Of a stretch of 64,000 bases of DNA, positions 20,281 through 63,286 are shown piece by piece. Numbering within the stretch: position 1 is the stretch's first letter; each line of letters starts with the position of its first letter. This stretch comes from Escherichia coli (GTDB lineage: Bacteria > Pseudomonadota > Gammaproteobacteria > Enterobacterales > Enterobacteriaceae). The notes under the pieces were generated by a model. The model was not told the origin of the DNA, did not search any database, and saw only the letters and a list, made by a program, of their open reading frames with translations. Made by a program: the position numbers and the translations under genes. The stretch lies in NCBI RefSeq assembly GCF_030013595.1, contig NZ_CP122771.1; one strand, written 5' to 3'.

Positions 20281-23200
20281 TGTTGAGTTTCAGCGTTGTT
20301 AAATCGGCAGGCAGTGCCGGAAACTATTACACCGACAAGGATAATTACTATGTGCTGGGCAGCATGGGAGAACGCTGGGCTGGTCAGGGGGCTGAACAGC
20401 TTGGGCTGCAGGGCAGCGTCGATAAGGATGTTTTTACCCGTCTTCTGGAGGGCAGGCTGCCGGACGGAGCGGATTTAAGCCGCATGCAGGATGGCAGTAA
20501 TAAGCATCGTCCCGGCTACGACCTGACCTTCTCCGCCCCCAAAAGTGTCTCCATGATGGCCATGCTCGGGGGGGATAAACGTCTTATTGATGCACATAAC
20601 CAGGCCGTGGATTTTGCTGTCCGTCAGGTGGAGGCGCTGGCTTCCACACGGGTGATGACGGACGGACAGTCAGAAACGGTGCTGACCGGTAATCTGGTGA
20701 TGGCACTGTTTAACCATGACACCAGTCGCGATCAGGACCCACAGTTACACACGCATGTGGTGGTGGCTAATGTCACGCAGCATAATGGCGAGTGGAAGAC
20801 ACTGAGCAGTGACAAAGTGGGGAAAACCGGATTTTCCGAGAACGTGCTCGCGAACCGGATTGCGTTCGGGAAAATATATCAGAGTGAGTTACGTCAGCGC
20901 GTTGAGGCGCTGGGTTATGAAACCGAAGTGGTCGGTAAGCACGGTATGTGGGAGATGCCGGGCGTACCGGTGGAGGCCTTTTCCAGTCGTTCACAGGCTA
21001 TCAGGGAGGCCGTCGGTGAAGACGCCTCGCTGAAATCCCGGGATGTGGCGGCGCTGGATACGCGTAAATCCAAACAGCACGTCGATCCGGAAATCAGAAT
21101 GGCTGAATGGATGCAGACGCTGAAGGAAACCGGGTTCGACATCCGGGCATATCGTGACGCGGCGGATCAGCGTGCGGAGATCCGCACGCTGACGCCCGGG
21201 CCTGCTTCACAGGACGGGCCGGATGTGCAGCAGGCGGTGACACAGGCGATTGCCGGATTAAGTGAACGAAAAGTGCAGTTCACGTACACGGACGTGCTGG
21301 CCAGAACGGTCGGCATACTGCCGCCGGAAAATGGTGTGATTGAACGGGCACGCGCCGGTATCGATGAGGCCATCAGCCGTGAGCAGCTTATCCCCCTCGA
21401 CCGTGAGAAGGGGCTGTTCACGTCCGGGATTCATGTGCTCGATGAGCTGTCAGTCCGGGCACTCAGTCGTGACATCATGAAACAGAACCGGGTGACCGTA
21501 CATCCGGAGAAAAGTGTTCCCCGGACGGCCGGTTACAGCGATGCCGTCAGCGTGCTGGCACAGGATCGCCCGTCGCTGGCCATTGTGTCCGGGCAGGGCG
21601 GTGCAGCCGGGCAGCGTGAGCGGGTGGCTGAACTGGTCATGATGGCCCGGGAGCAGGGGCGGGAGGTGCAGATTATCGCTGCTGACCGTCGCTCGCAGAT
21701 GAACATGAAGCAGGATGAGCGTCTGTCCGGTGAGCTGATAACCGGGCGGCGTCAGCTGCTGGAGGGCATGACCTTCACGCCGGGCAGTACCGTTATCGTC
21801 GACCAGGGCGAAAAACTCTCCCTGAAAGAGACGTTAACTCTGCTGGACGGTGCCGCACGGCATAACGTACAGGTCCTGATAATCGACAGCGGGCAGCGGA
21901 CCGGTACCGGCAGTGCGCTGATGGCCATGAAGGATGCCGGAGTGAACACATATCGCTGGCAGGGGGGAGAACAGCGACCGGCAACCATCATCAGTGAACC
22001 GGACCGTAATGTCCGCTATGCCCGGCTGGCCGGAGATTTTGCGGTCAGCGTGAAAGCCGGAGAAGAGAGCGTGGCGCAGGTCAGTGGAGTACGGGAACAG
22101 GCCATGCTGACTCAGACCATTCGCAGTGAGCTGAAAACACAGGGCGTACTCGGACATCCGGAGGTGACCATGACCGCGCTGTCACCGGTCTGGCTGGACA
22201 GCCGGAGTCGTTATCTGCGGGATATGTACCGCCCGGGGATGGTGATGGAGCAGTGGAACCCGGAGACACGCAGTCATGACCGCTATGTGATAGACCGGGT
22301 GACGGCGCAGAGTCACAGCCTGACCCTGCGGGATGCGCAGGGCGAAACGCAGGTGGTGCGTATTTCCTCCCTGGACAGCAGCTGGTCGCTGTTCCGGCCG
22401 GAAAAAATGCCGGTGGCAGACGGCGAGCGACTGAGGGTGACCGGGAAAATTCCCGGACTCCGAGTCTCCGGCGGTGACCGCCTGCAGGTGGCATCCGTCA
22501 GTGAAGATGTGATGACGGTTGTTGTGCCGGGGCGGGCTGAACCGGCCTCCCTGCCTGTGAGCGATTCACCGTTCACGGCACTGAAGCTGGAGAATGGCTG
22601 GGTGGAAACGCCCGGGCATTCCGTCAGCGACAGTGCGAAGGTTTTTGCCTCCGTCACACAGATGGCAATGGACAAGGCCACCCTGAACGGTCTGGCCCGC
22701 AGTGGTCGTGATGTCCGGCTGTATTCCTCACTGGATGAAACCCGTACTGCGGAAAAACTTGCCCGCCATCCGTCCTTTACGGTGGTTTCTGAGCAGATAA
22801 AGGCGCGGGCCGGTGAGACATCGCTGGAAACGGCTATCAGTCATCAGAAGTCCGCACTTAACACACCGGCACAGCAGGCCATTCATCTTGCCCTTCCGGT
22901 GGTGGAAAGTAAAAACCTGGCCTTCAGCCATGTGGACCTGCTGACAGAGGCAAAGTCGTTTGCTGCAGAAGGAACCAGTTTTGCTGACCTGGGGCGGGAA
23001 ATCAATGCGCAGATAAAACGCGGTGACTTACTGTATGTGGATGTGGCAAAAGGCTATGGCACAGGCCTGCTGGTTTCCCGTGCGTCGTATGAGGCAGAAA
23101 AGAGCATTCTTCGCCATATTCTCGAAGGTAAGGAGGCGGTCACGCCGCTGATGGAGAGAGTACCTGGCGAACTCATGGAGAAACTGACATCAGGACAGCG

Positions 23201-25550
23201 TGCCGCCACCCGCATGATACTGGAAACGTCCGACCGTTTCACGGTGGTGCAGGGCTATGCCGGTGTGGGTAAGACCACACAGTTCCGGGCGGTGATGTCA
23301 GCCGTGAACATGCTGCCGGAGAGTGAGCGTCCCCGTGTCGTTGGGCTGGGCCCCACGCACCGTGCGGTCGGGGAGATGCGCAGCGCCGGCGTGGATGCAC
23401 AGACACTGGCGTCCTTTCTGCATGACACGCAGCTGCAGCAGCGCAGCGGAGAAACGCCGGATTTCAGCAACACGCTGTTTCTGCTCGATGAGAGCTCAAT
23501 GGTGGGCAATACCGACATGGCACGGGCATACGCCCTGATTGCGGCCGGTGGTGGTCGTGCCGTGGCCAGCGGTGACACGGACCAGCTGCAGGCCATCGCG
23601 CCCGGTCAGCCTTTCCGTCTCCAGCAGACGCGCAGTGCTGCCGATGTGGTCATCATGAAGGAGATTGTGCGCCAGACGCCGGAGCTGCGGGAGGCGGTAT
23701 ACAGCCTGATTAACCGGGATGTGGAAAGGGCACTGTCCGGGCTTGAGAGTGTGAAACCGTCTCAGGTGCCACGTCAGGAGGGCGCATGGGTACCGGAGCA
23801 CTCCGTGACGGAGTTCAGTCACAGCCAGGAAGCGAAACTGGCAGAAGCGCAGCAGAAGGCGATGCTGAAAGGTGAGGCTTTTCCGGATATTCCCATGACA
23901 CTGTATGAAGCCATTGTCCGCGATTATACCGGCAGGACGCCGGAAGCACGGGAGCAGACGCTGATTGTCACGCATCTGAATGAGGACCGGCGCGTACTGA
24001 ACAGCATGATTCATGATGCACGGGAAAAGGCCGGTGAGCTGGGAAAAGAGCAGGTCATGGTGCCTGTCCTGAACACAGCGAATATACGCGACGGGGAGTT
24101 GCGTCGTCTCTCCACCTGGGAGACACATCGGGACGCACTTGCCCTGGTGGATAATGTGTATCACCGGATTGCCGGTATCAGCAAGGATGACGGGCTGATA
24201 ACTCTGCAGGATGCGGAAGGTAACACGCGGCTGATTTCGCCCCGGGAGGCGGTGGCTGAAGGCGTCACACTGTACACTCCGGACACCATCCGGGTGGGAA
24301 CCGGTGACCGGATGCGCTTCACGAAGAGTGACCGGGAGCGCGGTTATGTGGCCAACAGCGTCTGGACGGTGACAGCGGTTTCCGGTGACAGTGTCACGCT
24401 GTCGGACGGACAGCAGACCCGGGTGATTCGCCCCGCCCAGGAGCAGGCAGAGCAACATATTGACCTGGCCTATGCCATCACCGCCCACGGTGCGCAGGGG
24501 GCGAGTGAAACCTTTGCCATTGCGCTTGAAGGCACGGAAGGTAACCGGAAACTGATGGCCGGCTTTGAGTCAGCCTACGTGGCCCTGTCGCGTATGAAGC
24601 AGCATGTGCAGGTGTACACCGATAATCGTCAGGGCTGGACGGATGCCATTAACAATGCCGTACAGAAAGGAACTGCCCACGATGTGCTGGAGCCGAAACC
24701 GGACCGGGAGGTCATGAATGCAGAGCGGCTGTTCAGTACGGCGCGGGAGCTGCGGGACGTGGCGGCAGGGCGTGCCGTTCTTCGTCAGGCGGGGCTTGCC
24801 GGGGGAGACAGTCCTGCACGGTTTATTGCACCGGGACGTAAATATCCACAGCCGTATGTGGCACTGCCGGCGTTTGACCGTAACGGCAAATCAGCCGGTA
24901 TCTGGCTGAACCCGCTGACCTCGGATGACGGAAACGGGCTGCGGGGATTCAGCGGTGAAGGCCGTGTGAAAGGCAGCGGGGATGCGCAGTTCGTGGCCCT
25001 GCAGGGCAGCCGTAACGGAGAAAGCCTGCTGGCTGATAATATGCAGGAGGGTGTCCGGATTGCCCGTGATAATCCTGACAGCGGTGTGGTGGTAAGAATC
25101 GCCGGTGAAGGCCGTCCGTGGAATCCCGGTGCCATCACCGGTGGCCGCGTGTGGGGGGATATCCCGGACAACAGCGTCCAGCCGGGAGCCGGAAATGGCG
25201 AGCCGGTCACGGCAGAGGTACTGGCACAGCGGCAGGCTGAAGAGGCCATCCGCCGTGAAACGGAACGCCGTGCGGATGAAATTGTCCGTAAAATGGCAGA
25301 GAACAAACCTGACCTGCCGGATGGCAAAACAGAGCAGGCTGTCAGGGAGATTGCCGGGCAGGAGCGTGACCGGGCTGCCATAACTGAACGGGAAGCCGCG
25401 CTGCCGGAGAGTGTGCTGCGTGAATCACAACGGGAGCGGGAAGCGGTCCGGGAGGTTGCCCGGGAAAATCTGCTGCAGGAGCGTCTGCAGCAGATGGAGC
25501 GGGATATGGTTCGTGACCTGCAGAAAGAGAAAACCCTGGGCGGAGACTGA
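20280..25550 (+). CDS. traI: TraI, relaxase/helicase
   Basis: 1756 aa, N-terminus [24 protein letters not shown]; ATGA overlap with the traD stop; size identical to F TraI. Confidence 0.95.
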   Translation: MLSFSVVKSAGSAGNYYTDKDNYYVLGSMGERWAGQGAEQLGLQGSVDKDVFTRLLEGRLPDGADLSRMQDGSNKHRPGYDLTFSAPKSVSMMAMLGGDKRLIDAHNQAVDFAVRQVEALASTRVMTDGQSETVLTGNLVMALFNHDTSRDQDPQLHTHVVVANVTQHNGEWKTLSSDKVGKTGFSENVLANRIAFGKIYQSELRQRVEALGYETEVVGKHGMWEMPGVPVEAFSSRSQAIREAVGEDASLKSRDVAALDTRKSKQHVDPEIRMAEWMQTLKETGFDIRAYRDAADQRAEIRTLTPGPASQDGPDVQQAVTQAIAGLSERKVQFTYTDVLARTVGILPPENGVIERARAGIDEAISREQLIPLDREKGLFTSGIHVLDELSVRALSRDIMKQNRVTVHPEKSVPRTAGYSDAVSVLAQDRPSLAIVSGQGGAAGQRERVAELVMMAREQGREVQIIAADRRSQMNMKQDERLSGELITGRRQLLEGMTFTPGSTVIVDQGEKLSLKETLTLLDGAARHNVQVLIIDSGQRTGTGSALMAMKDAGVNTYRWQGGEQRPATIISEPDRNVRYARLAGDFAVSVKAGEESVAQVSGVREQAMLTQTIRSELKTQGVLGHPEVTMTALSPVWLDSRSRYLRDMYRPGMVMEQWNPETRSHDRYVIDRVTAQSHSLTLRDAQGETQVVRISSLDSSWSLFRPEKMPVADGERLRVTGKIPGLRVSGGDRLQVASVSEDVMTVVVPGRAEPASLPVSDSPFTALKLENGWVETPGHSVSDSAKVFASVTQMAMDKATLNGLARSGRDVRLYSSLDETRTAEKLARHPSFTVVSEQIKARAGETSLETAISHQKSALNTPAQQAIHLALPVVESKNLAFSHVDLLTEAKSFAAEGTSFADLGREINAQIKRGDLLYVDVAKGYGTGLLVSRASYEAEKSILRHILEGKEAVTPLMERVPGELMEKLTSGQRAATRMILETSDRFTVVQGYAGVGKTTQFRAVMSAVNMLPESERPRVVGLGPTHRAVGEMRSAGVDAQTLASFLHDTQLQQRSGETPDFSNTLFLLDESSMVGNTDMARAYALIAAGGGRAVASGDTDQLQAIAPGQPFRLQQTRSAADVVIMKEIVRQTPELREAVYSLINRDVERALSGLESVKPSQVPRQEGAWVPEHSVTEFSHSQEAKLAEAQQKAMLKGEAFPDIPMTLYEAIVRDYTGRTPEAREQTLIVTHLNEDRRVLNSMIHDAREKAGELGKEQVMVPVLNTANIRDGELRRLSTWETHRDALALVDNVYHRIAGISKDDGLITLQDAEGNTRLISPREAVAEGVTLYTPDTIRVGTGDRMRFTKSDRERGYVANSVWTVTAVSGDSVTLSDGQQTRVIRPAQEQAEQHIDLAYAITAHGAQGASETFAIALEGTEGNRKLMAGFESAYVALSRMKQHVQVYTDNRQGWTDAINNAVQKGTAHDVLEPKPDREVMNAERLFSTARELRDVAAGRAVLRQAGLAGGDSPARFIAPGRKYPQPYVALPAFDRNGKSAGIWLNPLTSDDGNGLRGFSGEGRVKGSGDAQFVALQGSRNGESLLADNMQEGVRIARDNPDSGVVVRIAGEGRPWNPGAITGGRVWGDIPDNSVQPGAGNGEPVTAEVLAQRQAEEAIRRETERRADEIVRKMAENKPDLPDGKTEQAVREIAGQERDRAAITEREAALPESVLRESQREREAVREVARENLLQERLQQMERDMVRDLQKEKTLGGD

Positions 25551-26316: not shown

Positions 26317-26370
26317 CGGGTGTGGTATCTTTGACCGCAAGAGGATGATTCGTCAGAGGCAGAACACAGC

Positions 26371-26931
26371 ATGACAGAGCAGAAGCGACCGGTACTGACA
26401 CTGAAGCGGAAAACGGAAGGGGAGACGCCTGTCCGCAGGCGGAAAACCATCATCAATGTCACCACGCCACCAAAGTGGAAGGTGAAAAAGCAGAAGCTGG
26501 CCGAGAAAGCAGCCCGGGAAGCAGAGCTGGCGGCAAAAAAAGCGCAGGCCAGACAGGCACTGTCCATTTATCTGAATCTGCCCACGCTGGATGAGGCCGT
26601 GAATACCCTGAAACCCTGGTGGCCGGGATTGTTTGACGGTGACACGCCCCGGCTTCTGGCCTGCGGTATCCGGGACGTGTTACTGGAAGACGTGGCGCAG
26701 CGGAATATCCCGCTCTCGCATAAAAAACTGCGCAGGGCGCTGAAGGCCATCACCCGTTCAGAAAGCTATCTGTGTGCCATGAAAGCCGGTGCCTGCCGGT
26801 ATGACACGGAAGGGTATGTGACGGAGCATATTTCTCAGGAGGAGGAAGCGTATGCGGCAGCGCGTCTGGATAAAATCCGCCGCCAGAACCGGATAAAGGC
26901 AGAACTTCAGGCCGTGCTTGATGAGAAATAA
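26371..26931 (+). CDS. finO: FinO, RNA chaperone of fertility inhibition (intact)
   Basis: 186 aa with N-terminus [25 protein letters not shown]; full length, not IS-interrupted as in F. Confidence 0.95.
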
Positions 26932-27062: not shown

Positions 27063-27275
27063 ATGAATGGATTCAGAAACAGTTCACGGAACGGTCAGGT
27101 CTGGTGCTGGCAGCGTGCCGGAAGCCGGGCCGTTATTCTGGAAGTCAGTGGTCGCTGGATGGAAGCGGCAGAAGCATGGCGACGGGCTGCCAGTGTTGCA
27201 CCCCGGACAGACTGGCAGCAGTTTGCCCGAAAAAGGGCTGAACACTGCCACCGGCGCTGCCGGGGAAGGGTGTAA
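27063..27275 (+). CDS. Small hypothetical Arg/Trp-rich protein (70 aa)
   Basis: Strong RBS aaagaggag upstream of ATG 27063; basic protein MNGFRNSSRNGQVWCWQRAGSR...; coding status uncertain. Confidence 0.3.
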   Translation: MNGFRNSSRNGQVWCWQRAGSRAVILEVSGRWMEAAEAWRRAASVAPRTDWQQFARKRAEHCHRRCRGRV

Positions 27276-27561
27276 CGAAAAAAGCAGCCTTCATTACTCC
27301 AGGTATTCAGAAGGCTGAATAATGCATGAGATTTTTCTTTTTTATATCTGGCCTGGCAGTATGACCAGTCAGCAGTCATTATCACAGGATTATTGCTGTA
27401 TTAAGTAATAGCGTGCTGTTTTGTGATTGATTTCATAAAACAAGACGTCGTTTAATATGCGCCTGAATATTCACGAGGGAAGTCTTTCTTTTTATATGGT
27501 GCTCCCGGAAATAAAATATTTTTTGTTATTGCTCACCCTGTTATGAATAAAAGGTAAAAAC

Positions 27562-43072: not shown

Positions 43073-43303
43073 TGTTCTTTAAAAATCAGGATTTATTTCA
43101 GGCTCCGGCAATATGCATTTATTTGTTCTGTCAGTCATCCGGCTGGCAGGTAATGAGAACGCAGGAACAGAAGGAGGAAAACACCGGAGAACGTCAGACG
43201 CAGATATGAAAAAAGCAGGTCAGGGACCTGCTTAATCCACACCGCAGAGACTGCACGAACAGTCTTTACGGTTTCATTAATTAACGTCATAAGAGGCTAA
43301 ATT

Positions 43304-43534
43304 ATGACAGTAAGTATTGTTTCACCTTCCGCAGCGGCTGTAAAGCCCCGCCGTCATCCCCGTTTCAGACGCGAAGACATCCCCGCGCCGGAAATTGACC
43401 CCGTGCTGAAAGCCTTCGGGCGACACATTGCCCGGAGTTTTCACCGGGGGCGTGGTGTACACATCCCCGCCATGAAAAACACGACCTTCGGGCAGGTGCT
43501 CCGCACACTCGAACTGAAACGCGCTTTTAACTGA
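43304..43534 (+). CDS. Hypothetical small basic protein (76 aa)
   Basis: ATG with upstream gaggc; first ORF after repeat B copy 1. Confidence 0.4.
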   Translation: MTVSIVSPSAAAVKPRRHPRFRREDIPAPEIDPVLKAFGRHIARSFHRGRGVHIPAMKNTTFGQVLRTLELKRAFN

Positions 43535-50441: not shown

Positions 50442-50474
50442 TGCGTAAGCGGCTCGCCAGAACCGTATTGATAT

Positions 50475-52046
50475 TTACTGAGAGGTCAGATCAACTTTCC
50501 AGGGCAACAGATCGCGTACCCGGTTTGCCGGCCAATCCTGGATATGCTCAATGACGTAACGCAGCCATTTTTCTGGTTCCACATTGTTCAGACGGCATGT
50601 GCCGATCAGCGAGTACAACACCGCCGCATGTTCGCCACCGCTGTCGGAACCCGCGAAGAGCCAGTTTTTCCGGCCTACGGCCACTCCCCGTAAGGCGTTC
50701 TCTGCGATGTTGTTGTCGATTTCCACCCAGCCATTACTGCAGTACACGTTCAGGGCCTCCCACTGTTTCAGCAGGTATGCGAACGCTTTTGCCGTATCCG
50801 AGTGACGCGACAGTGTTTTCATCTGTTCCTGTATCCAGTCATACAGTGACTGCATCAGTGGAGCCGCTCTGGCTTTTCTTGCTGCCAGACGCTGTTCTGC
50901 TGAACATCCCCGGACTTCTGCCTCGATGACATACAGTTCACCGATACGCTGCAGGGCTTCCGTGGTGATGTCGGTTGGCACTCTTGCATGCACATCGTGG
51001 ATTTTTCTCCGGGCATGGGCCATACACGCGGCTTCCGTTATTCTGCCGGATTCGTATAACGCCCGGTAACCACCGTAAGCATCTGCCTGAAGCACACCGC
51101 TGTAACCGGCCAGGTGATTCTGTGGATGGATACCTTTCCGGTCCGGGCTGTACGCGAACCAGACCGCCGGGGGCATCTGTGAACCGGCGTTACGGTCATC
51201 ACGGACATAGACCCACAGCCGGGCAGTTCTTGTTTTACCACTGCCCGGCTCCTGGACCGGAACGGGGATATCATCCGCATGGACTTTACCGGGCATCAGC
51301 ACATACTGGCGCAGCACGTCATACAGCGGCTCCAGCAGTTCAGCAACGGCACCGGTCCAGCGCCCCAGCGTGGCGCGGCTCAGTTCCACGCCCTGACGAA
51401 GGTATATTTCTGACTGGCGGTATAACGGCAGATGGTCTGCATACTTCCCGGTGACGATATGAGCCAGAAGCCCCGCTCCGGCATAACTGCGTGCAATGGG
51501 TTTTGAAGGTACTGGTGCCTGCACGATATGGTCGCACCGGCAACAGGCCAGTTTCGGACGTTGTGTTTCGATAACCTTAAAAGCGCTGCTGATAAGCTCC
51601 AGTTGCTCTGACACATCACACCCCAGAGGACTGAGGTCACCACCACAGGCCGGGCAGCATTCCTCTTCCGGCCGGATGACCCGGGTTTCACGGGGAAGTG
51701 AGGCCGGTAACGGCTTACGGGCTGAAGACTGGCGCAGGGCGGATGGCAGTACCGGGTCATATTGCTCATCCAGCGTTTCCGCCATTTCTTCCTGAAGTGC
51801 GCTGATTCGCTCCTGGGCTTCCTGTATCTGCCGTTCGGTTTTAGCGCGAAGTTTTTCTGAGCTTTTACCGAACTGCATGCGCTGCAGTTTCGCAACCAGC
51901 GCCTTCAGCCGGTTGATTTCGGAAGCATAAGCCGCCACCCGCTGTGAGAGCAGGCGGTTGTATTTCGCCATCTGGCGGATGGTGTCCTGTTGCGTCTGCA
52001 ACAGTGCCCGCAGGCGGGCATTCTCATGAGCAAGTGAGGTGTCCAT
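50475..52046 (-). CDS. IS66-family transposase (TnpC)
   Basis: 523 aa with N-terminal coiled coil, CxxC...CC zinc-finger region and DDE-type core typical of IS66 TnpC. Confidence 0.9.
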
Positions 52047-52065
52047 ATCCTCACTTTACAACGGG

Positions 52066-52413
52066 TTATATGCGGATGCCAGCGCGTTCCGTTCGTTTCG
52101 GGTGCTTCCAGTCGATGCCTTCGAGAAGCATGGACAACTGAGCCGGAGTAAGGTGAACCTTTCCATCGCGGGTGACCGGCCAGACGAAGCGGCCCCGCTC
52201 CAGGCGTTTGGTGAAGAGGCACAGTCCGTCACTGTCAGCCCACAGCACTTTTATCTGGTCACCCCGGCGTCCGCGGAAGATGAACAGATGCCCGGAGAAC
52301 GGGTCATCCTTCAGGACGTTCTGAACTTTTGAGGCCAGGCCGTTAAAGCCATTTCGCATATCGGTGATACCGGCAACCAGCCAGATACGCGAACCGGCAG
52401 GGAGAGATATCAT
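52066..52413 (-). CDS. IS66-family accessory protein TnpB (Orf2)
   Basis: 115 aa, MISLPAGSRIWLVAGITDMRNGFNGLA... typical IS66 Orf2. Confidence 0.85.
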   Translation of the reverse strand: MISLPAGSRIWLVAGITDMRNGFNGLASKVQNVLKDDPFSGHLFIFRGRRGDQIKVLWADSDGLCLFTKRLERGRFVWPVTRDGKVHLTPAQLSMLLEGIDWKHPKRTERAGIRI

Positions 52414-53063
52414 CAGTGGCTGCTCCCTTTCATTTCGCGGATAAGTGTCTGTAATAACGCCGGTGTCAGTTCACCTTTCAGCCTGAGAGTTCCGGCCGGC
52501 AGAACCAGCTCGCAGCACAGACTGTCTGGCAGTGTATTTATCTGTTCAGGTATCTGCACTGGTGCCGGGATTTTATTATCCGGCTCCGGAGTTAACGTCA
52601 CGGGAAGTAGCGATGTTTCATGTTCGCCGGGCGGTTGCAGGCCACCGTTACGCCAGAGATGCCGCCAGTTAAAGAGCAGGTTATCGTTAATTCCATTCTC
52701 TCGAGCTATTTGTGCGACACAAGCACCGGGTAAAAGAGTTTGCTGAACCAGTCTCCATTTAAACTCCGGTGAAAATCGGTTCCGGCGGGGTTTCTCTGCT
52801 TTCACAGGCTGAGTCACGGTCGGGGCTGAAGGGTATCGCCCCGGGAAAAGAGCCCGGGCCAGTTGCCCGCAGGAATATTCACCGGAAAGAGGCCAGTCAG
52901 TGAATACCTGGTGAAATCGCCTCACCAGAGAAAAAATGGCGGTTTTGCTGACACCGGTCTGCGCAGAAATGCGCGGGTACGACAGTGACTCGTCAAATCT
53001 CAGCTGTAGCACACGCAGGATCAATTCCGGATTGTCTGCCAGTACCGCTTTTCGTGCATTCAT
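52413..53063 (-). CDS. IS66-family accessory protein TnpA (Orf1, HTH)
   Basis: 216-aa ORF overlapping the tnpB start; first gene of the IS66 operon. Confidence 0.75.
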   Translation of the reverse strand: MNARKAVLADNPELILRVLQLRFDESLSYPRISAQTGVSKTAIFSLVRRFHQVFTDWPLSGEYSCGQLARALFPGRYPSAPTVTQPVKAEKPRRNRFSPEFKWRLVQQTLLPGACVAQIARENGINDNLLFNWRHLWRNGGLQPPGEHETSLLPVTLTPEPDNKIPAPVQIPEQINTLPDSLCCELVLPAGTLRLKGELTPALLQTLIREMKGSSH

Positions 53064-53374
53064 CTTAAATGTCCCTTTACTGCGAAAATGGACATTAGTA
53101 TCGGAAACAGGAAAGGGAGGCGAAAGACGGTTTAAATGAGACGGTTACCGTGATGCGGCAACAATCACATGGATTTCCCGTGAACGGTCTGAATGAGCGG
53201 ATTATTTTCAGGGAAAGTGAGTGTGGTCAGCGTGCAGGTATATGGGCTATGATGTGCCCGGCGCTTGAGGCTTTCTGCCTCATGACGTGAAGGTGGTTTG
53301 TTGCCGTGTTGTGTGGCAGAAAGAAGATAGCCCCGTAGTAAGTTAATTTTCATTAACCACCACGAGGCATCCCT

Positions 53375-53902: not shown

Positions 53903-56246
53903 GGGTCGGGTAGCAGCGGCACATTGCTGCGCCGCCGCCCCCTAAGAACGGAGCGTGCGAGTTTTCCCGCACTCCGCTCAAGCCTTTATAAGTGCTTTCG
54001 GTGAGCACCGGCTTCCCTGCTGTGTAACTGTCGGTGGCAGTTCGGATGTAACAACTCGAGATTGGTCAGTTCGTCACTGCCGCCCATAACTTTCCTGATC
54101 CGGTGATGTATATTCCATCCGGTCTGGTTGGTTATGAGTTGTCCGCACTGCGGACAGTGTTTCCCCTGCCTCTTCCAGAGTTGAACTACTGTCTTCATCT
54201 TCTTTGATTTGCCTTTCCAGATTAGATCCAGACGACGTTCAAAGTAGATTTCCATTCCGGGGGTGTATGGTGTTGCTTCGCCTTTGATTTTTATATGGCG
54301 CTTTATCGGTGTTTCCATTGCCCGGAAGAGTGTCAGAATTTTCCCTTCCGGGGTTATGGCTTTAAAGATCCAGCGCCTGCCTTCAAAGGAGAAGTATCGT
54401 CCGGCGATCCACCGCAATCCTTTCCGGGGATGCCGTCTTACACACCATCGCCATATAGCTCGCCAGATTTGGGTGTCGACATAATTAAATGTTTCTTTCG
54501 CCACGACGTGTCGGTGATAGGTAGCCCATCCCCGGATCACCGGGTTTAGCTGGCCTATCAGTTTCCATGCCGGGAGCGTCGGATTGCGTTTAATTATTTC
54601 TCTGACTTTACAGAGGAAGTTCTTCAGGTTTTTCTTCGACGGTTTAATCAGCATTTTACCGTTGTACTTCCTGACGTTCTGCCCTAAAAAGTCGAAGCCT
54701 TTATCTATATGTGTGATCGCTGTTTTTTCTTCCGACAGTTCCAGCCCTCGTTCGCGCATGAAAGCTGCAATCAGTGGTCTGACCTCATTTTCCAGCAATT
54801 CACGGGAGCTGCCTGAACAGATGAAATCATCAGCATATCTCACATAATTCACCTGGTGCTTTGCACTGTGATAACCACTTTTCCTGAACGTTTGCATCAG
54901 TTCCTTCTCCAGTCCGTCCAGAGCCATGTTGGCGAGAACAGGGGATATGATGCCTCCCTGCGGTGTCCCGCTGTTCGTATGGTTAAACACGCCTCTTTCC
55001 ATGTAACCTGCTTTCAACCATTTTTTAAGCAGTCTCCTGTCCATCGGAATATGGGAAAGCAGCCAGTCATGGCTGATGTTATCGAAACACCCTTTAATAT
55101 CGCCCTCCAGTATCCATTTGGGCGATACTTTCTGGCTCATCCGCAGAAAAATGGACTCAATGGCGTCATGCGTGCTGCGCATTGGTCTGAAACCATAGCT
55201 GTTATGGTCAGCAGTGGTCTCGGATACGGGTTCCAGAGCCAGCAGCCACAGTGCCTGCATGGCCCGGTCCCTCATTGTGGGTATGCCCAGCGGTCGCGTT
55301 TTGCCGTTTGATTTTGGGATATGTATTCGCCGTAGTGGCTGTGGCCTGTAACCACACAGATTCAGGCTGCATATTCCTTCCCATTTCTCCTTCGGTGTGT
55401 GCCATATTTTTCCGTCAATACCGGGTGTCCTTTTACCGGTATTTTCAGTTACACGCCTGACAGCCACGGCTTTGCCGGAGAATGAGCGGGTGAGGATGCG
55501 CTGTAGTTCTCTGACCTGCCGCCATTGTTGCTGTCGGGTTGCCTTTGCAATCCGTAACTGTAGCTTTCGCACCCGGGCATGGCATGCTTTCCAGTTTATG
55601 GTGTGCCAGCCTGTCGGGTGGGGTATCGTGGACACACTGATGTGTGTATTCATCTCGCTGATATCCTTTTGACTGCTTTACAGCTTTTCATGCAATTAAA
55701 GACCAGACGGAAGTCTGCCCGCTTTCGCGTCGGGGAACCTGCCCCGTATCCCGGTTATTACGGCCGGGCATTCGCTTTTTCCGTCCTCCTATGCCCGCAC
55801 CGCTAACAGTGTTCCTTGCGGTTCACCTGCCTGTGAGGCAGCGATACGGGTTTACCAGGTTCCGCTTAACATACAGAGGGTCAGGGCGGGTTCTGTCTCT
55901 TCACCGGGGGTCTCTGCGCCCATGTGCTCCCTGTGCGCGAGGTAGCAACCGGACCCCGTACCTTTTGGTTCAGGCCTGTCAGCATCTTTGGCCTGTTGCC
56001 GATAACGGTGTTTATCAACAGTTCACATGTGTTAACCCTTCTGACCAGCCTTGCTCTCCTGCCGCATGATGCTTGCAGCAAGGTAAAGCCCCTCACGGGG
56101 CTTTACCCGGGCTGACGCCCGGCTCTCGTTGTCCCGGGAGCTTCAGACCCCGCCGTTGCCGGCAACGCCTGTCCCGGTAGGCTACAGCTAATGGGATAGC
56201 TGGTTTTATCAATGTAAAACAATACGTTAAGCGACTTCCTGTCGCA
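53903..56246 (-). mobile_element. Group II intron (about 2.34 kb) inserted in a type B leading-region repeat; low-coordinate boundary uncertain by about 10 bp
   Basis: Minus-strand 5' end GTGCGAC at 56246; domain V GAGCGGAGTGCGGGAAAACTCGCACGCTCCGTTC at 53946-53979; flanks rejoin to match uninterrupted copy 1 at 42459-42510. Confidence 0.8.
53986..55653 (-). CDS. Group II intron-encoded protein (reverse transcriptase / maturase / HNH endonuclease)
   Basis: 555 aa with RT motifs (YADD), maturase X region and C-terminal HNH-like Cys/His cluster. Confidence 0.9.
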   Translation of the reverse strand: MNTHISVSTIPHPTGWHTINWKACHARVRKLQLRIAKATRQQQWRQVRELQRILTRSFSGKAVAVRRVTENTGKRTPGIDGKIWHTPKEKWEGICSLNLCGYRPQPLRRIHIPKSNGKTRPLGIPTMRDRAMQALWLLALEPVSETTADHNSYGFRPMRSTHDAIESIFLRMSQKVSPKWILEGDIKGCFDNISHDWLLSHIPMDRRLLKKWLKAGYMERGVFNHTNSGTPQGGIISPVLANMALDGLEKELMQTFRKSGYHSAKHQVNYVRYADDFICSGSSRELLENEVRPLIAAFMRERGLELSEEKTAITHIDKGFDFLGQNVRKYNGKMLIKPSKKNLKNFLCKVREIIKRNPTLPAWKLIGQLNPVIRGWATYHRHVVAKETFNYVDTQIWRAIWRWCVRRHPRKGLRWIAGRYFSFEGRRWIFKAITPEGKILTLFRAMETPIKRHIKIKGEATPYTPGMEIYFERRLDLIWKGKSKKMKTVVQLWKRQGKHCPQCGQLITNQTGWNIHHRIRKVMGGSDELTNLELLHPNCHRQLHSREAGAHRKHL

Positions 56247-58378: not shown

Positions 58379-58888
58379 TTAATTGTTCTGCACGCTGTTA
58401 ATTTCCGGAAGTGATTTCTTCGTGGCCGGAAGCCGGATACCTTTACTGCTTTTTATCCCGGTATAAATCCGGTAAACCTCTGATGCGTAGGCAAGACGTC
58501 TCTGGTTCTGGCGTTCGGATTTCCTGAATCCTGCATTGTATGCACCAACGGCCTCCCAGGTGACGCCCCATTTTTTAAATGCTATTGCCAGATAATAAGC
58601 ACCGGTATAAATGTTCATGCAGGGATCTGTTGTCAGATGTTCCGGCTTAATTCCATAGCGGGCCAGTTCGTTAAAATGCTGGGAATCTACCTGCATCAGT
58701 CCGCTGCCATATCCCGTTACCGGATTAATACCGATGGCATTAACCCGGTAACGGGATTCTTTCCATGATATTGCTCTCAGTAAATCAGGATCTATTTTGT
58801 AATCCCGGCCTGCAAGATCAAAGCAATCAGTGGCATGGCAGATCTCATTTATAAACATCAGGCAGATGGCTAACATCCATTTTTTCAT
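58379..58888 (-). CDS. Lytic transglycosylase (SLT domain; F orf169 / gene X equivalent)
   Basis: 169 aa from ATG 58888; signal peptide; SLT motifs [10 protein letters not shown] and GLMQV; adjacent to oriT. Confidence 0.85.
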
Positions 58889-58934
58889 TTTTCCACCTCT
58901 GGTGACTTTATCCGTAAATAATTTAACCCACTCC

Positions 58935-59200
58935 ACAAAAAGGCTCAACAGGTTGGTGGTTCTCACCACCAAAAGCACCACACACTACGCAAAAACAAGT
59001 TTTTGCTGATTTGCCTTTTAAATCATGTAATTAACAAATGCTATTTATATTTAATAATTCTGAATTATTAAATAGAGAGTCGTTGGCGATCCTGTTACGA
59101 CCCTATAGCGACCCTTATTAGGATCAGTACTGACAATTTTCATGAAAAACATTGATATATATTAGGGGCGCCACTAGCGCCGGATCGCATTTTTTTATAG
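58935..59200 (+). other. oriT region with R100-type nic sequence (nic near 58979/58980 on the minus strand)
   Basis: Minus-strand TTTGCGTAGTGTGT^GGTGCTTTTGGTGGTGAGAACCACC matches recalled F-family oriT with R100-type nic core; followed by AT-rich region and inverted repeats before traM. Confidence 0.7.
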
Positions 59201-59303
59201 GATGATCCTAGAGGCGCTGCTAGGAGTGTCTTTCTTACTTGTAAACACTATATGCATATTTATAGTGAAAAGTTCATTGCTTAATTATGAAAGGTTTTAT
59301 CTT

Positions 59304-59687
59304 ATGGCCAGAGTAATTTTGTATATCAGTAATGATGTCTATGACAAAGTAAATGCGATAGTTGAACAGCGTCGTCAGGAGGGGGCAAGAGATAAAGATA
59401 TAAGTGTTTCGGGAACAGCTTCAATGCTTCTTGAACTGGGGCTTCGCGTACATCAGGCTCAGATGGAGCGTAAAGAGTCTGCATTTAATCAGACTGAGTT
59501 TAATAAATTACTTCTTGAATGTGTTGTAAAAACACAGTCATCAGTAGCGAAAATTTTGGGTATTGAGTCTCTAAGTCCCCATGTCTCCGGGAATCCAAAG
59601 TTTGAATATGCCAATATGGTTGAAGATATTCGTGAGAAGGTGTCATCTGAGATGGAACGATTTTTTCCAAAAAATGATGAGGAATAA
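59304..59687 (+). CDS. traM: TraM, oriT-binding relaxosome protein
   Basis: 127 aa MARVILYISNDVYDKVNAIVEQRRQEGARDKDISVSGTASMLLELGLRV... Confidence 0.9.
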   Translation: MARVILYISNDVYDKVNAIVEQRRQEGARDKDISVSGTASMLLELGLRVHQAQMERKESAFNQTEFNKLLLECVVKTQSSVAKILGIESLSPHVSGNPKFEYANMVEDIREKVSSEMERFFPKNDEE

Positions 59688-59794
59688 AAAAGAATTAAAA
59701 GTTGATTTACTTCAAATAACAGGATTTTGATCTGGTTCAATTTGATGACAATTAACCACATAAAGGGTATATTAATTATGTGGTTAATGCCACG

Positions 59795-59875
59795 TTAAAA
59801 ATTTAGTTTAAATCGCCGATGCAGGGAGAGCGACCTCCCTGCATCGACTGTCCATAGAATCCTTTGAGAGGAGGT
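59795..59875 (-). ncRNA. finP: FinP antisense RNA (approximate position)
   Basis: Region upstream of the traJ start contains hairpin TGCAGGGAG...CTCCCTGCA (59819-59845) where the traJ leader/finP stem-loops are expected; coordinates inferred. Confidence 0.35.
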
Positions 59876-59879
59876 TCCT

Positions 59880-60551
59880 ATGTATCCGACGGATCGTAGA
59901 CAACTTAATACTGAACGTCAAATATATTTGGATAAACAGTCTTTTGTAGATGTTTTTTCAATCCCTGCTTGCGTTCGAAATACTAATGGAGATTTTATCG
60001 GCTACAATGAAAAATTCTCTAAAGAATTTATAGGTAGTCTTGATATCAAAGAGTGGTTTTACTCCCTTCCTGTACAAGTAGCTACATCGTTTTTAAGAGA
60101 AGAACTGGATGCTATGTCTTTGCCTTCGTCCATGAATAAAATACAGAGCGTGGCTATAGGTGATAAACTCTGGCTGGTACAATTTATACCATTAATATAT
60201 GGGGAGGTGGTTAATGTTTTATGGCTTTTTTTCTGCAAAAATTCTAATGTGATAGTGGATTATTGTAGAGGATTACGTTCAAATATAACAAATGACAGAA
60301 TGCTTGAATTTAAAAACAAATCAACGGAAATCCAATGGAAAGTTTTTATTCTTTATTCATTTGGTTTTTGTCATGAATCGATAGCATCTCTTTTGTCTAT
60401 TACTAATGGTTCTTCCCGGAATGCAATTTCAGAAGTGTATAAGTTTTTCGGTATACATTCAAAACATGATTTGTTAATGATTTTTCATACAAGTAGGATG
60501 CATAGTTTATTTTTTGATGAATTGTTTTTTATTTTAAAATGTGCTGAATAG
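59880..60551 (+). CDS. traJ: TraJ, positive regulator of the tra operon
   Basis: 223-aa AT-rich ORF between traM and traY; RBS gagagg before ATG. Confidence 0.85.
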
Positions 60552-60687
60552 TTGATGTTTTGTTTTTGTTAAAAACAAGGTGACATTATGTCACCTTGTT
60601 TTGTTAATGTAATTTACTCTATTTTTGTTTCTATTTTTATGGATTCGTATAATTATATTTAATTATCTAAGTGGCTGAGGAGGAGAC

Positions 60688-60915
60688 TTGAGCAGAAATA
60701 TAATAAGGCCTGCTCCGGGCAATAAAGTTTTACTGGTATTGGACGATGCTACTAATCACAAGCTCTTAGGTGCCCGGGAGCGCAGCGGGAGAACAAAAAC
60801 TAATGAGGTGCTAGTCAGGTTACGTGATCATCTGAGCCGTTTTCCTGACTTTTATAATCTGGATGCAATAAAGGAGGGAACAGGGGAAACTGATTCGATA
60901 ATTAAAGATCTTTAA
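60688..60915 (+). CDS. traY: TraY, RHH relaxosome accessory protein (TTG start, 75 aa)
   Basis: RBS gaggaggag before TTG 60688; 75 aa as in R100-type TraY. Confidence 0.8.
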   Translation: MSRNIIRPAPGNKVLLVLDDATNHKLLGARERSGRTKTNEVLVRLRDHLSRFPDFYNLDAIKEGTGETDSIIKDL

Positions 60916-60972
60916 GTTTATTAATCTATCCACAATAGAGGTAACTTATGAATGCTATTTTGAGTGTTCAGG

Positions 60973-62029
60973 GGCTTTGTTGAATAAATCGAACTTTTGC
61001 TGAGTTGAAGGATCAGATCACGCATCCTCCCGACAACACAGACCATTCCGTGGCAAAGCAAAAGTTCAGAATCACCAACTGGTCCACCTACAACAAAGCT
61101 CTCATCAACCGTGGCTCCCTCACTTTCTGGCTGGATGATGAAGCGATTCAGGCCTGGTATGAGTCGGCAACGCCTTCATCACGAGGAAGGCCCCAGCGCT
61201 ATTCTGATCTCGCCATCACCACCGTTCTGGTGATTAAACGCGTATTCCGGCTGACCCTGCGGGCTGCGCAGGGCTTTATTGATTCCATTTTTTCTCTGAT
61301 GAACGTTCCGCTACGCTGCCCGGATTACAGCTGTGTCAGCAGGCGGGCAAAGTCGGTTAATGTCAGTTTCAAAACGCCCACCCGGGGTGAAATCGCACAC
61401 CTGGTAATTGATTCCACCGGGCTGAAGGTCTTCGGTGAAGGCGAGTGGAAAGTCAAAAAGCATGGCCAGGAACGCCGCCGTATCTGGCGTAAGCTGCATC
61501 TCGCCGTTGACAGTAAAACACATGAAATCATCTGCGCTGACCTGTCGCTGAACAACGTTACGGACTCAGAGGCCTTCCCCGGGTTAATCCGGCAAACCCA
61601 CCGGAAAATCAGGTCAGCCGCCGCCGATGGCGCTTACGATACCCGGCTATGTCACGATGAACTGCGGCGTAAGAAAATCAGCGCGCTTATCCCTCCCCGA
61701 AAAGGTGCGGGTTACTGGCCCGGTGAATATGCAGACCGTAACCGTGCAGTGGCTAATCAGCGAATGACCGGGAGTAATGCGCGGTGGAAATGGACAACAG
61801 ATTACAACCGTCGCTCGATAGCGGAAACGGCGATGTACCGGGTAAAACAGCTGTTCGGGGGTTCACTGACGCTGCGTGACTACGATGGTCAGGTTGCGGA
61901 GGCTATGGCCCTGGTACGAGCGCTGAACAAAATGACGAAAGCAGGTATGCCTGAAAGCGTGCGTATTGCCTGAAAACACAACCCGCTACGGGGGAGACTT
62001 ACCCAAAATCTGATTTATTCAACAAAGCC
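60973..62029 (+). mobile_element. IS903 (IS5 family, 1057 bp) with 9-bp target duplication GTGTTCAGG
   Basis: Terminal inverted repeats GGCTTTGTTGAATAAATCG at both ends; GTGTTCAGG at 60964-60972 and 62030-62038. Confidence 0.9.
61005..61973 (+). CDS. IS903 transposase
   Basis: 322-aa ORF filling the element; DDE-type IS5-family transposase. Confidence 0.9.
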   Translation: MKDQITHPPDNTDHSVAKQKFRITNWSTYNKALINRGSLTFWLDDEAIQAWYESATPSSRGRPQRYSDLAITTVLVIKRVFRLTLRAAQGFIDSIFSLMNVPLRCPDYSCVSRRAKSVNVSFKTPTRGEIAHLVIDSTGLKVFGEGEWKVKKHGQERRRIWRKLHLAVDSKTHEIICADLSLNNVTDSEAFPGLIRQTHRKIRSAAADGAYDTRLCHDELRRKKISALIPPRKGAGYWPGEYADRNRAVANQRMTGSNARWKWTTDYNRRSIAETAMYRVKQLFGGSLTLRDYDGQVAEAMALVRALNKMTKAGMPESVRIA

Positions 62030-62386
62030 GTGTTCAGGGTGCTTCTGCGCCCGTCAAAAAGAAGTCGTTTTTTTCTAAATTCACTCGTCTGAATATGCTT
62101 CGCCTGGCTCGCGCTGTGATCCCGGCTGCTGTTCTGATGATGTTCTTCCCGCAGCTGGCGATGGCCGCCGGCAGTAGTGGTCAGGACCTGATGGCAAGCG
62201 GTAACACCACGGTTAAGGCGACCTTCGGTAAGGACTCCAGTGTTGTTAAATGGGTTGTTCTGGCTGAAGTTCTGGTCGGTGCTGTCATGTACATGATGAC
62301 CAAAAACGTCAAGTTCCTGGCCGGTTTTGCCATCATCTCTGTATTTATTGCTGTGGGTATGGCCGTCGTTGGCCTGAAATAAAACG

Positions 62387-62698
62387 ATGTCGGGAGACGA
62401 GAATAAACTTAAGAAATATCGTTTCCCGGAAACACTGACCAACCAGAGCCGCTGGTTTGGCCTGCCACTGGATGAGCTGATCCCCGCAGCAATCTGTATT
62501 GGCTGGGGTATCACAACATCGAAATATCTGTTCGGTATTGGTGCAGCGGTTCTGGTTTATTTCGGGATTAAAAAACTGAAAAAAGGGCGGGGCAGTTCCT
62601 GGTTACGTGACCTGATTTACTGGTATATGCCAACAGCCCTGCTGCGCGGTATTTTTCATAATGTTCCCGATTCGTGTTTCCGGCAGTGGATTAAATAG
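62387..62698 (+). CDS. traL: TraL
   Basis: ...[59 protein letters not shown]... matches recalled F TraL. Confidence 0.9.
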
Positions 62699-62719
62699 AA
62701 CTGATACCAGGATTGTTAT

Positions 62720-63286
62720 ATGGAACACGGTGCCCGTTTAAGTACCAGTCGTGTAATGGCCATCGCCTTTATATTTATGTCAGTGCTTATTGTTCTCAGC
62801 CTCTCTGTTAACGTCATTCAGGGGGTGAATAACTACCGTCTTCAGAATGAGCAACGCACTGCGGTGACGCCAATGGCATTTAATGCCCCCTTTGCCGTGT
62901 CACAGAATAGTGCCGATGCCTCTTATTTACAGCAGATGGCGCTGTCATTTATTGCCCTCCGTCTGAATGTTTCATCAGAAACTGTCGATGCCTCACATCA
63001 GGCGCTTCTGCAATATATTCGTCCGGGGGCACAGAACCAGATGAAAGTTATTCTGGCCGAAGAAGCCCAGCGTATTAAAAACGATAACGTGAATTCTGCT
63101 TTTTTCCAGACCAGTGTCCGTGTCTGGCCTCAGTATGGCCGTGTGGAAATTCGTGGAGTGCTTAAAACCTGGATTGGTGATTCAAAACCTTTCACTGATA
63201 TCAAACATTACATCCTTATTCTGAAGCGGGAAAACGGGGTGACCTGGCTGGATAATTTCGGGGAAACAGACGATGAGAAAAAATAA
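62720..63286 (+). CDS. traE: TraE
   Basis: 188 aa with N-terminal TM segment; size and position as F TraE. Confidence 0.9.

Follow-up and report, generated by a model that had tools for sequence, protein, structure and literature searches.

The segment examined here belongs to a 64-kb window (the whole stretch of DNA that was analysed) and runs from gene X through oriT, traM, the overlapping finP and traJ loci and traY into traA, which is split by an insertion sequence (IS). Two further genes, traI and finO, lie elsewhere in the window. The features are as follows:

20280-25550, plus strand: traI, relaxase/helicase, 1756 amino acids; the relaxase domain (residues 1-330) is encoded at 20280-21269
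26371-26931, plus strand: finO, intact, 186 amino acids, 179 of them identical in R100 FinO
58379-58888, minus strand: gene X (orf169), lytic transglycosylase, 169 amino acids from the ATG at 58888 (Pfam SLT, 77.3 bits)
58889-59303, no strand assigned: oriT region, from the start of gene X to the start of traM
58975-58987, minus strand (the transferred strand): nic core TAGTGTGT^GGTGC, a single exact match with R100 identity
58989-59006, minus strand: inverted repeat GCAAAAACTTGTTTTTGC, directly 5' of the relaxase binding site on the T-strand
59304-59687, plus strand: traM, R100 allele, 127 amino acids (Pfam Tra_M, 177.6 bits)
59745-59773, plus strand: traJ promoter-like site ATGACA-17-TATATT (promoter scan, 10 of 12 matches; a consensus match only)
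59778-59885, plus strand: traJ 5' UTR (Rfam RF00243, 109.6 bits; gathering score 50)
59809-59886, minus strand: FinP antisense RNA with R100-type loops (Rfam RF00107, 94.7 bits)
59880-60551, plus strand: traJ, R100 allele, 223 amino acids, 220 of them identical in R100 TraJ
59893-59921, minus strand: FinP promoter-like site TTGACG-17-TACGAT (promoter scan)
60688-60915, plus strand: traY, R100 allele, 75 amino acids, a single RHH unit (Pfam TraY, PF05509)
60948-60972, plus strand: 5' fragment of traA, codons 1-8 and one base of codon 9; left duplication copy at 60964-60972
60973-62029, plus strand: IS903-like insertion sequence (IS5 family), 1,057 bp; transposase ORF at 61005-61973
62030-62382, plus strand: remainder of traA (F-type pilin); right duplication copy at 62030-62038

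We compared the locus with R100 (NR1, NC_002134), F (NC_002483) and the R1-type plasmid p1NQ3 (NZ_CP024721.1), which stands in for R1 itself (KY749247). p1NQ3 was chosen because in it an F-type nic region adjoins the IHF-site sequence that PMC12117103 quotes for R1. Another candidate for this role, NZ_CP023530.1, was dropped because IS1 cuts it after traM. The overall gene order is shared with F and with the R1-type plasmid, and gene X is the same as in F. In relatives, gene X is annotated as a 200 amino acid form that starts at a GTG and overlaps nic. Over its full 2,060 bp, the oriT-traM-finP-traJ-traY block is 98.1% identical to R100, and approximately 600 PLSDB plasmids carry essentially this oriT-traY block.

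The nic core and the relaxosome proteins

On the minus strand, the nic core reads TAGTGTGT^GGTGC from 58987 to 58975 (the caret marks the presumed nick). A search of both strands of the window with TAGTGTGTGGTGC gives one exact match, at this site; by our own arithmetic, the chance expectation for a 13-mer in 2 x 64 kb is approximately 0.002. The three other matches in the window have two mismatches each and are at the chance level (1.39 expected). The sequence-only reading had called the core R100-type and named an alignment of oriT as the check, with an F-type core as the outcome that would speak against it. In the alignment the core is that of R100 and differs by two bases from that of F and the R1-type plasmid, which both read TGGGGTGTGGTGC, so that the call holds. 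With the relaxase binding site included, the T-strand reads GCGTAGTGTGT^GGTGC in the window versus GCGTGGGGTGT^GGTGC in F and R1. A nic core shared between R1 and R100 is ruled out by the R1-type plasmid sequence and by a published account in which the R1 core equals that of F (PMC3245843).

The wider sequence around nic on the transferred strand is GCAAAAACTTGTTTTTGCGTAGTGTGT^GGTGCTTTTGGTGGTGAGAA. Every letter of it agrees with two published oligonucleotides (PMC3074121) placed end to end, first "Hairpin R100" and then the beginning of 3'oriT, and this agreement would place the nick between 58980 and 58979. The hairpin portion of the published oligonucleotides is the GCAAAAACTTGTTTTTGC repeat (PMC3074121), which is unchanged across the window, R100, F and the R1-type plasmid. 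The two nic-core substitutions between F and R100 are described as lowering both the affinity and the cleavage of the F TraI relaxase (PMC3074121). The oriT region has 7 substitutions relative to R100 in approximately 415 aligned bases. With F it shares the first approximately 95 bp, up to nic, but the two diverge strongly beyond approximately 35 nt from nic in the tra direction; the region downstream of nic, to which TraY, IHF and TraM bind, follows R100.

The proteins that act at oriT carry the same signature. Within residues 1-330, TraI differs from R100 at 3 positions and from F at 25, and the catalytic tyrosines Y16/Y17 are present. The window has L2/D153/R193/Q201, as in R100, where F has M/E/Q/R; these are the positions of the F-to-R100 relaxase swap (M2L/E153D/Q193R/R201Q) described in PMC3245843. 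TraM differs from R100 at 2 positions and from F at 14, and is 76% identical to that of the R1-type plasmid. Its beta-ribbon residues R3/I5, which were shown to determine R100-versus-F specificity for sbmA (PMC3159463), are in the R100 state.

The traY ORF, between traJ and traA, consists of 75 codons and a stop. Its product is identical to R100 TraY at 72 of 75 residues (96%) and has one PF05509 domain (residues 14-60, 75.8 bits). The TTG at 60688 is preceded by GGAGG, 4 nt upstream, and by an in-frame TGA at 60676, 12 nt before the start. There is no in-frame ATG within the ORF (60688-60915), and the next candidate start, a TTG at codon 18, already lies within the Pfam match; the TTG at 60688 thus appears to be the sole plausible start. 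In RefSeq, R100 traY is likewise annotated to begin at the homologous TTG, a start that Inamoto et al. reportedly demonstrated experimentally in 1988. F TraY, in contrast, is a 133 amino acid tandem RHH protein annotated from a GTG. The R1-type protein is also a single RHH unit of 75 amino acids, with a GTG start and 47% identity to the TraY of the window; the tandem form of F and the single form of R1 are contrasted in PMC12117103. The size and the R100 allele given in the sequence-only reading are confirmed, and its TTG start is probably correct. Its use of the length as an R100 marker is not, because R1-type TraY is equally long: the R100 allele appears to be marked by its sequence and its TTG start, while 75 amino acids is not a diagnostic length.

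FinP, traJ and finO

TraJ is 98.7% identical to its R100 counterpart, versus 22% for F and 26% for the R1-type plasmid, and matches no Pfam family. The promoter-like site upstream of traJ sits at the same place in R100. FinP and the traJ 5' UTR both exceed their Rfam gathering scores, and FinP is predicted to fold into two stem-loops (-38.2 kcal/mol, z = -5.7), both of whose loops have the R100 sequence and not that of F. The FinP promoter-like site puts the start of transcription at approximately 59886, the 5' end of the Rfam match. Its -10 hexamer, TACGAT, is that of F; R100 has TAGGAT.

The 3' tail of FinP departs from both reference plasmids. It reads GAUUUAAACU in the window, GAUUUUUAAU in R100 and GAUUUUCAAU in F, so that the U-tract is shortened to only three consecutive U. 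The variant is due to a 10-bp substituted patch (approximately 59801-59810), a minority allele found in approximately 14 of the 858 plasmids that have a related FinP region. A simple terminator scan calls FinP in R100 and F but not in the window. The Rfam consensus itself ends GAUUUu, with a weakly conserved fourth U. Stem-loop II, to which FinO binds, is perfect and stabler than in R100, whose RNA has a G-U pair there.

The sequence-only reading had also reported a full-length finO. This part stands: the 186-codon ORF has neither a frameshift nor an IS, and its product is 96.2% identical to R100 FinO, with both the FinO_N (129 bits) and the ProQ/FinO (95 bits) domains of Pfam. The position given for it does not, as the gene lies outside 58935-60915, approximately 32 kb away, a consequence of the window running around most of a circular plasmid. 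finO begins 54 bp after traX, as in F. R100 has a 286-codon hydrolase ORF between traX and finO, which is absent from the window. This ORF (orf286) is reported to raise finO mRNA levels.

FinOP is active in R100, R1 and R6-5, while F is derepressed by the insertion of IS3 into finO (PMC7690428); the finO gene in the window, unlike that of F, is intact. From the comparison of alleles, FinOP-repressed transfer (the fi+ phenotype) can reasonably be expected, and the plasmid should act as fi+ towards co-resident F-like plasmids.

The insertion in traA

The disruption of traA assumed in the earlier reading is borne out: an IS903-like element (60973-62029) interrupts codon 9 and is flanked on both sides by the 9-bp target duplication GTGTTCAGG. 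The interrupted frame reads MNAILSVQGLC and then a stop as it runs into the IS. The terminal inverted repeats, GGCTTTGTTGAATAAATC, match over 18 bp, and the element encodes a single DDE transposase (Pfam DDE_Tnp_1_5 and DDE_Tnp_1). The best database copies are 96-98% identical and are annotated as IS5 or IS903 family; canonical IS903 is approximately 1,057 bp long, with 18-bp inverted repeats and a 9-bp target duplication. Removing the IS and one duplication copy in silico restores a 122 amino acid TraA that is identical (100%) to that of plasmid NZ_CP122686.1, 98.4% identical to F TraA and 86% identical to R100 TraA.

No record in PLSDB or among the complete E. coli genomes spans the traA::IS junction, and the element is absent from the nearest plasmids, NZ_CP122686.1 and CP122741.1. 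In the window, traC through traT, traD, traI and traX are intact ORFs (approximately 3.1 kb of the plasmid, with traB, traP, trbD, traV and the 5' end of traR, lies outside it), and traA is the only visible tra gene that is not intact. What blocks the transfer of this plasmid is most probably this recent insertion in the pilin gene, private to the plasmid, rather than any decay of the DNA-processing genes. It would remove normal propilin synthesis independently of FinOP and is probably also polar on the tra operon. With propilin lost in this way, the plasmid in its present form is most likely unable to transfer itself. If the IS were excised precisely, or pilin were supplied in trans, transfer might return, unless the element is polar on the downstream tra genes.

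Specificity and control of transfer

These comparisons make it very probable that the block is the oriT together with the traM-finP-traJ-traY control and relaxosome region of an IncFII F-like plasmid of the MOBF12 type, in its R100 alleles. The R100-type label is best limited to the DNA-processing and regulatory module, as the plasmid is a mosaic. TraL is 100% and TraE 99.4% identical to F (R100 TraE is 93.6% identical to that of the window), and the pilin and the traX-finO junction, with the same spacing as in F, are also F-type. In the mechanism that we propose on the basis of established F and R100 biology, IHF, TraM and TraY (the last as a dimer of single RHH units) would occupy R100-type sites in oriT and recruit the plasmid's own R100-type TraI. 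TraI would recognise single-stranded GTAGTGTGT^GGTGC and cut the minus strand just 3' of the T at 58980, so that the leading region, at the lower coordinates, would enter the recipient first. TraJ would be needed for the tra operon to be expressed. With the intact RNA chaperone FinO to stabilise it, allele-matched FinP would block traJ translation, and transfer would therefore be repressed.

The F-type pilin, TraL, TraE and traX-finO junction, together with the F-type -10 hexamer of FinP, might suggest that the specificity of oriT and its relaxosome is itself of the F or R1 type. We consider this highly improbable, since the nic core departs from F and the R1-type plasmid at both discriminating bases, the discriminating residues of TraI are all in the R100 state and the TraM beta-ribbon is R100-type; TraJ is as distant from F and the R1-type plasmid as noted above, and TraY has 26% identity to F and 47% to the R1-type protein. 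R100-type specificity remains our reading, and two alternatives concern instead how tightly transfer is shut off. FinOP might be leaky or weak in spite of the intact finO, in which case a repaired plasmid would transfer partly derepressed. The FinP tail that escapes the terminator scan, its rarity among related plasmids and the missing ORF upstream of finO all point in this direction. On the other hand, the plasmids of this lineage, which are apparently conjugative, have kept the tail variant. FinP reaches 94.7 bits with an Rfam family whose own fourth U is weakly conserved, and stem-loop II is stabler than that of R100. F-like plasmids that have no 286-codon ORF are also reported to remain FinOP-repressed. 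On balance, leaky repression seems unlikely to us. If it were true, tight repression could not be predicted from the presence of an intact finO in these livestock-associated IncFII plasmids. It is tempting to go further and hypothesize that the three-U tail and the absence of the 286-codon ORF have made FinOP naturally leaky, and that the insertion in traA was a secondary silencing of costly, partly derepressed transfer, but we regard this combined scenario as quite improbable.

The other alternative is that the interrupted traA is not a null allele. Initiation at Met28 (62095), with transcription through or out of the IS, might still yield pilin and a reduced level of transmission. The 95 amino acid ORF at 62095-62382 starts MLRLARAVIPAAVLMMFFPQLAMA^AGSS... 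(the caret here marking the cleavage site) and keeps the hydrophobic core and the AMA cleavage site along with the complete mature pilin, behind a conventional signal-peptide-like leader of 24 amino acids. The transposase gene is co-oriented with the tra operon, and traQ and traX are intact. However, no Shine-Dalgarno sequence can be recognised ahead of 62095, and a 1-kb IS is usually polar; we regard residual pilin synthesis as quite improbable. We therefore keep to the reading in which FinOP represses transfer and the insertion most likely abolishes it.

The oriT and control module represents ordinary, textbook R100-like (IncFII) biology that is already known. One prediction concerns helper plasmids: R100-type relaxosomes could act on this oriT, while those of the F or R1 type could not. 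The practical value is one of annotation only, and the understanding of F-like conjugation is unchanged.

The nearest whole-plasmid relatives are the two plasmids named above, NZ_CP122686.1 and CP122741.1, which are IncFII plasmids of pig ETEC from Belgium. They are collinear with the window, with 98-100% identity over nearly the full length, and both are without its group II intron (53.9-56.2 kb). In CP122741.1, finO has a 2-bp TA insertion that may be an assembly error. It would be unsafe to take it for a natural derepressing mutation: traW, traN and traK are likewise missing from the gene table of this plasmid, which points to indels in the assembly. In NZ_CP122686.1, the oriT-traY block is identical to that of the window, and the hydrolase ORF is present upstream of a more divergent finO.

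Plasmid layout and relatives

The R100-type transfer module recognized by the sequence-only reading is real and its interpretation is supported, with some refinements: the length of TraY is not diagnostic, finO lies elsewhere on the plasmid, the backbone is mosaic, and the level of repression is something we infer. All features that we found belong to well-characterised systems and are ordinary and already known. Most of the plasmid, a circular IncFII F-like molecule of about 67 kb, lies within the window. Because FinP and the traJ leader lie at 59.8 kb and antisense RNAs within traG and traI lie at 13-23 kb, the tra operon spans the window ends, beginning near the window end and resuming at the window start. 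The features are as follows.

13680-13765, minus strand: AS-traG, inside traG (Rfam)
23129-23205, minus strand: AS-traI, inside traI (Rfam)
27172-27355, minus strand: AS-pc02 (Rfam)
30.8 kb: CopA (Rfam)
43210-43309, minus strand: AS-pc01 (Rfam)
50445-53149: IS66-family element, about 2.7 kb
53905-56237, minus strand: group II intron, about 2.3 kb (Rfam: RF02012 at 56054-56203, RF00029 at 53905-53981)
53986-55653: reverse-transcriptase/maturase/HNH-like ORF in the intron, 555 aa
58379-58888, minus strand: gene X (orf169)
58889-59303: oriT
59304-59687: traM
59.8 kb: FinP and traJ leader (Rfam)
59809-59886, minus strand: finP
59880-60551: traJ
60688-60915: traY
60948: start of traA, interrupted at 60973
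Two loci: hok/sok (Rfam)

The families AS-pc02, AS-pc01, AS-traI and AS-traG have the IncFII plasmid pHK01 as their first source, and these matches are consistent with a pHK01/R100-like backbone. No interruption was found in any of traC through traT, traD, traI or traX. TraD (18055-20280) is 741 aa long (738 in R100, 717 in F); near its C-terminus it has ten QQP repeats in a run (PQQ in the other register), and it keeps the C-terminal ...GDDF tail, the part contacting TraM.

Full-length matches to the 2,060-bp oriT-to-traY block were found in 600 PLSDB plasmids; against R100 (NC_002134), the block shows 98.1% identity. The closest relatives at the whole-plasmid level are two Belgian pig ETEC plasmids (NZ_CP122686.1 and CP122741.1), and comparison with them reveals three insertions in the window: the IS66-family element, the group II intron and an IS903-like element in traA. 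The first sits just upstream of the leading-region hok/sok locus and is present in CP122741.1 at 99.9% identity but not in NZ_CP122686.1; the intron, with hok/sok on one side and the DUF932 gene on the other, lies in the leading region and is in neither.

The nic core and its cognate proteins

The 13-mer TAGTGTGTGGTGC has one exact match in the window (minus strand, 58987..58975); three more matches with two mismatches represent no excess over shuffled sequence. Around nic, the transferred strand reads GCAAAAACTTGTTTTTGCGTAGTGTGT followed directly by GGTGCTTTTGGTGGTGAGAA, a sequence that reproduces exactly the "Hairpin R100" oligonucleotide and then the 3'-oriT oligonucleotide of the Schildbach laboratory (PMC3074121). 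Because of this identity, the nick would be expected between 58980 and 58979.

Alignment of oriT with F (NC_002483), R100 and R1 had been proposed as the check, and a nic core matching F as the result that would refute the R100-type reading; the core does not match F. The first approximately 95 bp are the same in the window, R100 and F save for two positions within the nic core, where the window has the R100 bases (ACT versus CCC in F, plus strand). Farther than about 35 bp from nic on the tra side, the window tracks R100 and F diverges; there are seven substitutions relative to R100 in all. The R1-type comparator, p1NQ3 (NZ_CP024721.1), was chosen because it carries the IHF-site sequence that PMC12117103 quotes for R1. 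Its nic core is F-type, and R1 and F are identical in sequence around nic (PMC3245843). In the relatives, the RefSeq gene X transglycosylase is a 200-aa GTG-started ORF running across nic (58379-58981, minus strand); started from the ATG at 58888, gene X encodes the classical protein of 169 aa, and oriT is then non-coding.

The proteins acting with this site were compared in the same way. A passage of PMC3245843, citing Harley and Schildbach (2003), gives the F-to-R100 specificity swap in TraI as M2L/E153D/Q193R/R201Q. The window TraI has L2, D153, R193 and Q201, as does R100 (M, E, Q and R in F). Within residues 1-330 there are 3 differences from R100 and 25 from F; outside this stretch, TraI does not discriminate between the two. 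TraM, with 2 differences from R100 and 14 from F, carries R3 and I5; an F traM mutant was complemented 60,000-fold better once these residues had been changed to those of F (PMC3159463). TraJ shares 220 of 223 residues with R100; its identity is 22% with F and 26% with the R1-type protein.

The traY ORF has 75 codons from a predicted TTG start, as had been claimed. GGAGG precedes this start by four bases and an in-frame TGA by twelve, and the ORF contains no in-frame ATG. Its product matches R100 TraY, which RefSeq begins at the homologous TTG, at 72 of 75 residues. In F, TraY combines tandem RHH units in one chain, whereas that of R1 has only one such unit (PMC12117103). The R1-type protein, too, has 75 aa (GTG start, 47% identical to the window protein). 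Length thus separates the window from F but not from R1. It is the sequence and the TTG start that, in our alignments, mark this TraY as the R100 allele.

FinOP and the prediction of repression

The full-length finO that had been reported is a complete ORF of 186 codons, although it lies at 26371-26931, well outside the 58935-60915 interval to which it had been assigned. FinO has both Pfam domains and 96.2% identity to R100 FinO. FinP and the traJ leader score 94.7 and 109.6 bits, respectively, in Rfam. The predicted fold of FinP shows both expected hairpins, whose two loops equal R100 and differ from F, and a promoter-like site (TTGACG-17-TACGAT) would put its transcription start at the Rfam 5' end. 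FinOP is active in R100, R1 and R6-5, while F is derepressed through IS3 in finO (reviews; PMC7690428). Given the intact FinO, the R100-type FinP and this activity in R100, R1 and R6-5, repressed transfer is a reasonable prediction.

Two caveats attach to this prediction. The first is a 10-bp patch (approximately 59801-59810), immediately past the 3' side of FinP stem-loop II, where the sequence departs from R100. The FinP tail is GAUUUAAACU in the window versus GAUUUUUAAU in R100, the U-tract being cut to three U, and a simple terminator scan calls the FinP hairpins of R100 and F but not that of the window. The patch is a lineage allele: among 858 plasmids whose FinP region is related, about 14 carry it.

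The second caveat concerns the traX-finO junction (26317-26370), which is like that of F, with finO 54 bp after traX. In contrast, R100 and NZ_CP122686.1 have a 286-codon ORF (861 bp, alpha/beta-hydrolase) between these genes, which the window lacks. This ORF may be "orf286," which reportedly raises finO mRNA levels. Over 4 kb, the sole difference between CP122741.1, the closest relative, and the window is a TA insertion after window-equivalent 26789 that frameshifts finO; either an assembly error or a natural mutation that relieves repression may account for it. In the gene table of CP122741.1, traW, traN and traK are missing as well.

The traA insertion and the mosaic backbone

The disruption of traA noted earlier is borne out: an IS903-like element of the IS5 family (1,057 bp, 60973-62029) interrupts the gene after its first 25 nt. 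The element carries a DDE transposase ORF, has 18-bp inverted repeats GGCTTTGTTGAATAAATC and is flanked by a 9-bp direct duplication GTGTTCAGG. The insertion looks recent and private, since no record in PLSDB or among complete E. coli genomes spans the junction. On the 3' side of the element, an in-frame ATG (Met28 of the propilin) opens a 95-aa ORF (62095-62382) comprising a 24-aa signal-peptide-like leader ending AMA and the entire F-type pilin; ahead of 62095 there is no obvious Shine-Dalgarno sequence.

Nucleotide identity flips just past traY. Between oriT and traY, the values are 94-100% for R100 and 23-78% for F; beginning with traA, they are 95-100% for F, and for R100 approximately 83% in traA and 90-100% farther downstream. 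With traA reconstructed, the encoded TraA shows 98.4% identity with the pilin of F and 86% with that of R100; TraL does not differ from F TraL, and TraE matches its F counterpart at 99.4%. Judged from these identities, recombination has joined an R100-type DNA-processing module to F-type traA, traL and traE, with the breakpoint between traY and traA (58889-60915 versus 60948-63286). The term "R100-type" thus fits the DNA-processing and regulatory module and not the pilus. The mature pilin is F pilin with an added C-terminal Lys.
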